Assembly (NCBI GenBank): GCA_000004695.1
Contig: CM000153.2
Location: forward strand, 896,001 to 960,000
Length of the DNA: 64,000 bases
Direction of reading: 5' to 3'
Source of the DNA: Dictyostelium discoideum
Taxonomy: Eukaryota
The number at the start of each line of letters is the position of its first letter. Positions within the stretch are counted from its first letter, which is position 1. Positions 7,775 to 8,037 of the stretch are shown piece after piece. The notes beneath the pieces were generated by a model that did no database searches, was not told where the DNA came from, and saw only the letters and a program-made list of their open reading frames with translations. Position numbers and translations under genes: made by a program.

Positions 7775-8037
7775 CACGGGAAAAAATTTTTTTAGAACAT
7801 TCATTATTTTTTGAGATATTTTATGACATGTAATTTCTCACTTTTTAAAAAGAGAAATTATAATTTAATAAAATTTTTAACAAATTAATATTAAATATTA
7901 ATTAATAATATATCACATGTTAATATAAAATTATCATTAAATAATAAAAAAAGAATTAATATGAAAAATGACATTTATAAATTTTTTAAATTTTTAATTA
8001 ATTTTATTTTATTTTGTTAGCTTTTTTTTTCCCCGTG
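7775..8037. mobile_element. 263-bp MITE-like non-autonomous element with terminal inverted repeats CACGGGAAAAAA / TTTTTTTCCCCGTG; the insertion site is empty in the paralogous repeat copy at 11090/11091
   Basis: The filled site reads ..CCTGGATT[CACGGG...CCCGTG]TTGACATCAG. The empty site at 11081-11098 reads ..CCTGGATTGACGTCAG. An internal partial copy lies at 16043-16250 (GAAATTATAATTTAATAAAATTTTTAACAAA...), with a diverged left end TTCACCAGAGAAAAAAAC. Confidence 0.5.

Follow-up and report, generated by a model that had tools for sequence, protein, structure and literature searches.

Dictyostelium discoideum is a model organism with a gene-dense genome, and its DNA transposons are few and poorly classified. 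They belong to the Tdd, DDT, and thug families; the transposases of DDT and thug have no recognised relatives, and these two unclassified families jointly account for ~1% of the genome (PMC5633606). Tdd-4 and Tdd-5 are elements of ~3.8 kb with an integrase-like transposase, inverted repeats of 260-297 bp, TGTNR termini, and 5-bp target-site duplications, in keeping with the Ginger2/Tdd group as a whole (TGTNR termini, inverted repeats of 50-300 bp, 4-5 bp duplications) (PMC2836005). Non-coding MITEs whose ends are invariably 5'-CAC/GTG-3' and whose duplication is 2 bp long are assigned to the CACTA/Mirage/Chapaev (CMC) superfamily (PMC6004678), and the wider CMC-Transib clade has CA..TG ends and 2-5 bp duplications in common (PMC12730594). 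CMC-type MITEs without a known partner are classed by their ends and duplication alone (PMC6004678; PMC12730594). In the literature that could be searched, we came across no account of Dictyostelium MITEs.

The window and the genomes compared

The window, by which we mean the whole 64-kb stretch of D. discoideum DNA analysed here, has a GC content of 21% and a typical dictyostelid gene content: a tandem array of calfumirin-like EF-hand genes, an FMN reductase, eb1, two tyrosinases, a cAMP-receptor-like GPCR, and others, including the following.

12845-14395: FAE1-type ketoacyl-CoA synthase, 516 aa

We compared the window with the syntenic locus of a second D. discoideum genome, the chromosome-scale assembly GCA_054883475.1, which is 99.4% identical to it (11 mismatches over 21.6 kb). 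Syntenic loci were also compared from five relatives: two that are ~90% identical to the window (L002 and L003), a close relative carrying the label "D. cf. discoideum," D. dimigraforme, and D. firmibasis. Altogether, the DNA covered amounts to ~70 kb of D. discoideum (the window plus a 6.6-kb extension) and ~100 kb from the five relatives.

Several other features of the window are recorded here in their own right. Four Dictyostelium class I RNA genes (Rfam RF01414, 45-48 bits) lie on the minus strand at 60823-60877, 62244-62301, 63090-63146, and 63587-63644, and this cluster explains the direct repeats of the 60.8-63.9 kb region. A related repeat, at 1006-1677, matches no Rfam family at the gathering score. 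The tyrosinase genes form a tandem pair (22279-24960 and 25953-28653, 94% identical). Close dictyostelid orthologs aside, their nearest homologs are fungal and bacterial, and the syntenic locus of D. firmibasis has no tyrosinase gene. The pair suggests a lineage-specific gain, possibly by horizontal transfer. A DDX3-like DEAD-box helicase has an inverted partial duplicate of its 3' exon region (42000-42358 vs 43102-43791, 85-88% identical), which contains an in-frame stop and is an apparent pseudo-exon lying tail-to-tail with the real gene.

Element 1 and its empty paralogous site

Four calfumirin-like EF-hand genes make up the tandem array at ~1500-10130, with units that are 80-88% identical, and fragments of an orphan gene family (family B) are interleaved with them at 5021-5173, 7474-8582, and 10796-11597. 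Alignment of family-B copy A (7440-8460) with copy B (10770-11480) using MAFFT gives a single gap of 265 columns, which corresponds to a 263-bp element plus one TT. The features at the two copies are as follows.

7775..8037, plus strand: element 1, probable non-autonomous transposon, 263 bp, 13.7% GC, no ORF (from the family-B copy alignment and the end motifs)
7773..7774, unstranded: left copy of the element 1 TT target-site duplication (the empty paralog has a single TT)
7775..7786, plus strand: 5' terminal inverted repeat of element 1, CACGGGAAAAAA
8022..8037, plus strand: 3' terminal inverted repeat of element 1, TTTTTTTTTCCCCGTG, reverse complement CACGGGGAAAAAAAAA
8038..8039, unstranded: right copy of the element 1 TT target-site duplication
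11089..11090, unstranded: empty site of element 1, one TT in ggaTTgac, in family-B copy B
~10748-11457, minus strand: family-B copy B, annotated as a 142-aa orphan gene (product P0001)

The filled site (7773-8039) reads ggaTT-CACGGGAAAAAA...TTTTTTTTTCCCCGTG-TTgac. At the matching position copy B reads cctggaTTgacgtc, with its TT at 11089-11090. An inverted-repeat search places the terminal arms at 7775-7786 and 8026-8037 (12 nt, 92% complementary). The terminal hexamers are rare in the window: CACGGG occurs once on the plus strand in the whole 64 kb (at 7775) and CCCGTG once (at 8032), against an expectation of 0.36 per strand. The longest stop-free stretch within the element is 41 codons, and as a single strand it folds only mildly better than shuffled sequences do (z = -2.4).

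These results bear directly on the original prediction, which had described a 263-bp AT-rich element with inverted ends that is cleanly absent from the paralogous copy at 11090. The predicted coordinates are exact, the arms lie exactly at the indel boundaries, and copy B indeed has ggaTTgac with the insert missing. The proposed target, given as TT or a TTGAC-proximal site, stands as to TT, which is duplicated (2 bp), and falls as to TTGAC. The empty site is defined here against the paralogous copy B; the relatives retain the N-terminal part of family B only.

On the P0001 gene model, the copy A insertion falls within exon 2, and the splice donor follows 5 bp further downstream. On the minus strand the insertion point is ...GTC AA/TCC AG^GT, where the slash marks the insertion and the caret the donor. 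P0001 itself has no Pfam domain, and a protein-homology search found no homologs of it outside D. discoideum. Copy A has an in-frame stop and no gene call, and it differs from copy B by further indels of 6, 17, 21, and 19 bp; it is a degenerate copy, that is, a pseudogene. Copy A also carries a poly(T) tract of ~50 T at 8345-8395, where copy B has 17 T at the matching spot (11390-11410).

Element 2 upstream of eb1

The original prediction also pointed to a related partial copy at 16043-16250, upstream of eb1. The homology is real, but the copy is not partial: the predicted segment covers one third, at the 5' end, of a full element of 604 bp lying between the FMN reductase gene and eb1.

16046..16649, plus strand: element 2, probable non-autonomous relative of element 1, 604 bp, 12.7% GC, no ORF, in the FMN-reductase/eb1 intergenic region
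16044..16045, unstranded: left TT flank of element 2
16046..16060, plus strand: 5' end of element 2, CACCAGAGAAAAAAA, a degenerate inverted repeat
16636..16649, plus strand: 3' end of element 2, TTTTTTTTCCAGTG, reverse complement CACTGGAAAAAAAA
16650..16651, unstranded: right TT flank of element 2 (relatives have ...tttaTTattagatttgag, with one TT)

When the region upstream of eb1 is aligned with L002 and L003, the window shows one clean 604-bp insertion running from CACCAGAGAAAAAAA (16046) to TTTTTTTTCCAGTG (16649). Both relatives read ...tttaTTattagatttgag at this position, with a single TT and the insert exactly missing, so that the empty site is ttaTTatt. In the dc-megablast synteny chain, element 2 is the sole large clean insertion in the aligned intergenic DNA. 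The FMN-reductase/eb1 intergenic region measures 1541 bp in the window vs 923 bp in L002 and 944 bp in L003, a difference close to the length of the element. Element 2 has no homolog in this interval in D. dimigraforme (743 bp) or D. firmibasis (1050 bp) either. Because it is absent from these four taxa, we infer that element 2 entered after D. discoideum separated from their lineages. A deletion with ragged ends, which had been named at the outset as a way in which an empty site could mislead, does not match this alignment, within the limits of the DNA compared: the orthologous site is cleanly empty in two related species. Both insertions, element 1 and element 2, are present with identical sequence in both D. 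discoideum genomes (the window and GCA_054883475.1), and current mobility is therefore without evidence.

The ends of element 2 are less regular. Its 5' end, CACCAGAG, is an imperfect match to its own 3' end (CACTGG), and its longest stop-free stretch is 44 codons. The flanks TTATT/TTATT are ambiguous as a duplication, lying in a variable ATT repeat; we rejected a 5-bp duplication (TTATT) for element 2, which element 1 does not support and which this repeat confounds. An internal 3' end at "AACCCCGAA" (16382-16402), proposed by MAFFT, was likewise rejected: the polarity of its A/T run is wrong, and the ortholog alignment places the end at 16649. The sequence at 16382-16402, AAAAAAAAATAACCCCGAATT, contains a rare CCCCG, and it is this stretch that MAFFT paired with the 3' end of element 1. 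We treat the match as a coincidence, and a composite origin of element 2 is conceivable.

Element 2 stops 227 bp upstream of the eb1 ATG (16877). A separate feature of this promoter region is a TTTGGCGC motif resembling an E2F site at 16724-16733, ~145 bp upstream of the eb1 start codon. The motif is kept in all five species examined (also at ~13198 in L002, ~13358 in L003, ~18600 in D. dimigraforme, and ~18390 in D. firmibasis). Element 2 was inserted ~78 bp upstream of this conserved motif (GGCGC), which is intact.

Shared ends, origin, and comparison with known systems

The two elements are related to each other in sequence over their 5' subterminal regions.

16046..16234, plus strand, vs 7775-7963: shared 5' subterminal region, ~190 bp, ~75% identity

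A blastn comparison of element 1 with element 2 gives a bit score of 129 (AT-rich background maximum, 77), and their local-alignment score is 90, while random AT-rich segments score 32 +/- 12. Within the shared region, the 28-mer ATTATAATTTAATAAAATTTTTAACAAA is identical in both elements. The likeness of the 3' subterminal regions is not significant beyond the ends (z ~2). Alignment of all four ends yields (TT)-CAC-N-GG/AG-(A)6-9 followed by a loosely conserved TAAnAAA, and so both elements have the inverted end motif 5'-CAC-N-GG-(A)6-9 ... (T)6-9-CC-N-GTG-3'. A degenerate form of the end motif, CACNNGRAAAAA, has four matches in the window, three of them at element ends, where 1.1 would be expected. 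As an inverted repeat the motif is short, and in a genome that is 79% AT a homopolymer run makes up half of it; its arms of 12-13 nt lie at boundaries that were set independently by the paralog and ortholog alignments. TT is found on all four flanks, where the chance expectation is ~0.001, and it is duplicated rather than just adjacent, because the empty sites have one TT. Both elements are small and non-coding (263 and 604 bp, with stop-free stretches of at most 44 codons). The suggestion of a small non-autonomous DNA transposon family is supported by a second member with the same type of end, TT flanks, and an empty site of its own.

Further copies were sought with an nhmmer profile built on the 190 bp that the elements share at the 5' end and with scans for the end pattern. 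These recovered only the two elements in the window plus the 6.6-kb extension and no element in the ~100 kb from five related genomes. Multi-copy status, size homogeneity, and target preference accordingly rest on two elements of differing lengths in ~70 kb. The 28-mer ATTATAATTTAATAAAATTTTTAACAAA has 0 exact matches in the JGI metagenome, IMG/VR viral, and prokaryote genome collections. Protein-homology searches with the family-B orphan, the tyrosinase, and the cAMP-receptor-like GPCR as queries returned matches only from this locus.

Could the two indels have arisen without any transposition? In that case the filled state would be ancestral, the empty sites, that of element 1 in copy B and those of element 2 in the relatives, would be deletions between TT microhomologies, and nothing would ever have been mobile. 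The other indels between copies A and B, the indel-rich AT-rich intergenic DNA of these species, and the weakness of a 2-bp microhomology as evidence all leave some room for such deletions. However, two independent deletions would be needed, each exactly bounded by the same rare inverted motif. Element 2 is moreover missing from four other taxa, with an intergenic length difference that approximates the element, and the two segments are homologous though their contexts are unrelated. We therefore regard deletion as very improbable. To the idea of an intron, whether a gain in copy A or a loss from copy B, we give practically no weight. The 263-bp segment is AT-rich, of Dictyostelium intron size, and located within a gene, 5 bp from a splice donor; yet GT...AG boundaries are lacking on both strands in all three registers in which the indel can be placed, and for this reason the segment is not an intron. 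Element 2, which is homologous to it, is intergenic, and copy A itself has an in-frame stop and no gene call.

The best explanation of the whole, which we hold to be highly probable, is that both segments are MITE-type non-autonomous cut-and-paste DNA transposons of one D. discoideum family, with the mechanism, CMC affiliation, and history given here. As expected of MITEs, they are under ~800 bp and non-coding, with inverted repeats at their boundaries and a duplication verified against the empty site. A transposase encoded elsewhere in the genome would bind the CAC...A-run ends and excise the element, which would then reinsert at a TT by way of a 2-bp staggered cut whose repair would leave the TT duplicated. 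Element 1 would have landed in a coding exon of an orphan gene that was already duplicated, in the copy that is now a pseudogene. Element 2 would have inserted into the promoter region of eb1 once D. discoideum had parted from the ~90%-identical sister lineages.

The superfamily is most likely CMC, a call that rests only on the ends and the duplication length because no transposase or autonomous copy was found in the DNA examined. All four ends start with CAC, giving the CAC...GTG termini of this superfamily, and the 2-bp duplication falls within its range of 2-4 bp. Two other origins have to be weighed against it. The elements may be real non-autonomous transposons that arose as internal-deletion derivatives of DDT-A/B/S or thug-S/T, with ends in common, a possibility that we consider rather unlikely. 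MITEs usually stem from an autonomous element of the same genome (PMC6004678), and the DDT and thug transposases, being without recognised relatives, could have ends and duplications of this kind as far as our tests go (PMC5633606). Among the known D. discoideum families, Tdd-4 and Tdd-5 are excluded as sources by their TGTNR ends, inverted repeats of 260-297 bp, and 5-bp duplication. Somewhat more doubtful is a superfamily other than CMC with 2-bp duplications, such as relatives of ISL2EU/PIF or an unknown amoebozoan superfamily. Harbinger-related elements can give 0-, 2-, or 3-bp duplications, and some PIF/Harbinger-ISL2EU relatives give 2-bp ones (PMC12730594); the transposases of D. discoideum have been described as dissimilar to those already known (PMC5633606). 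Against this stand the CAC...GTG termini, which are the signature by which non-coding elements are assigned to CMC, and the duplication of TT instead of the TA or TWA typical of Tc1/mariner and PIF.

Several named groups were considered and rejected. Stowaway elements (Tc1/mariner) duplicate TA, and Tourist elements (PIF/Harbinger) duplicate TWA. A Stowaway-like origin does not fit the flanks, all four of which are TT and not TA (empty sites ggaTTgac and ttaTTatt), and a Tourist-like 3-bp TWA does not fit element 1, which has ATT on the left vs TTG on the right. Solo LTRs have TG..CA ends, while the element ends are CA..TG with a 2-bp duplication. Transib would give a 5-bp duplication with ends resembling the CAC heptamer, and the element 1 flanks GGATT/TTGAC agree in TT alone. 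The hAT superfamily is recognised by an 8-bp duplication and YARNG termini (PMC6004678); here the duplication is 2 bp and the third base is C at every end. Ginger2/Tdd (Tdd-4, Tdd-5) does not accord with CAC ends, repeats of 12-13 bp, and a 2-bp duplication.

As a class of mobile element, these are ordinary, and they add to the catalogue without changing the understanding of such elements. What they offer for D. discoideum is a set of defined ends and a duplicated target, which give a concrete handle for finding and classifying the transposase. They also supply, for the microtubule-regulator gene eb1, a dated promoter insertion specific to this lineage, which makes that promoter 604 bp longer than in the sister species, and they exemplify how an exon is disrupted in a young duplicate of an orphan gene. 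A more far-reaching reading, to which we attach only a small probability, is that these are the first recognised Dictyostelium MITEs and that their ends and strict TT mark an amoebozoan transposase of CMC/Transib-like type (the RAG-related clade), perhaps a DDT or thug protein. If so, the elements would place the DDT and thug proteins, unclassified since 2001, in a known superfamily.

Compared with the transposons already known from this host, the elements resemble Tdd-4 and Tdd-5 (Ginger2/Tdd) as cut-and-paste DNA transposons of D. discoideum with inverted terminal repeats. DDT and thug have the host in common with them and are the obvious candidates for the trans-acting partner. The family is probably undescribed in D. 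discoideum, or else an unrecognised derivative of DDT or thug. Stowaway and Tourist MITEs are similar in size, AT-richness, non-coding character, and location in or near genes, and differ from these elements, which duplicated TT at both insertions and have CAC...GTG ends.

Relative to canonical CACTA elements, the CAC here is followed by NGG and an A-run. The elements differ from the CMC-NA MITEs in their amoebozoan host, in the duplication of TT both times, and in that no C(2)C/H(3-4)H DDE transposase is linked to them. Their likeness to CMC-type MITEs, and to the CACTA/EnSpm, Mirage, and Chapaev relatives, is one of ends and duplication, sequence similarity not being expected. They are most comparable to CMC-NA_1 and CMC-NA_2 of ichnoviruses and wasps, which are likewise short and non-coding, with CAC...GTG ends, short inverted repeats, and a 2-bp duplication.
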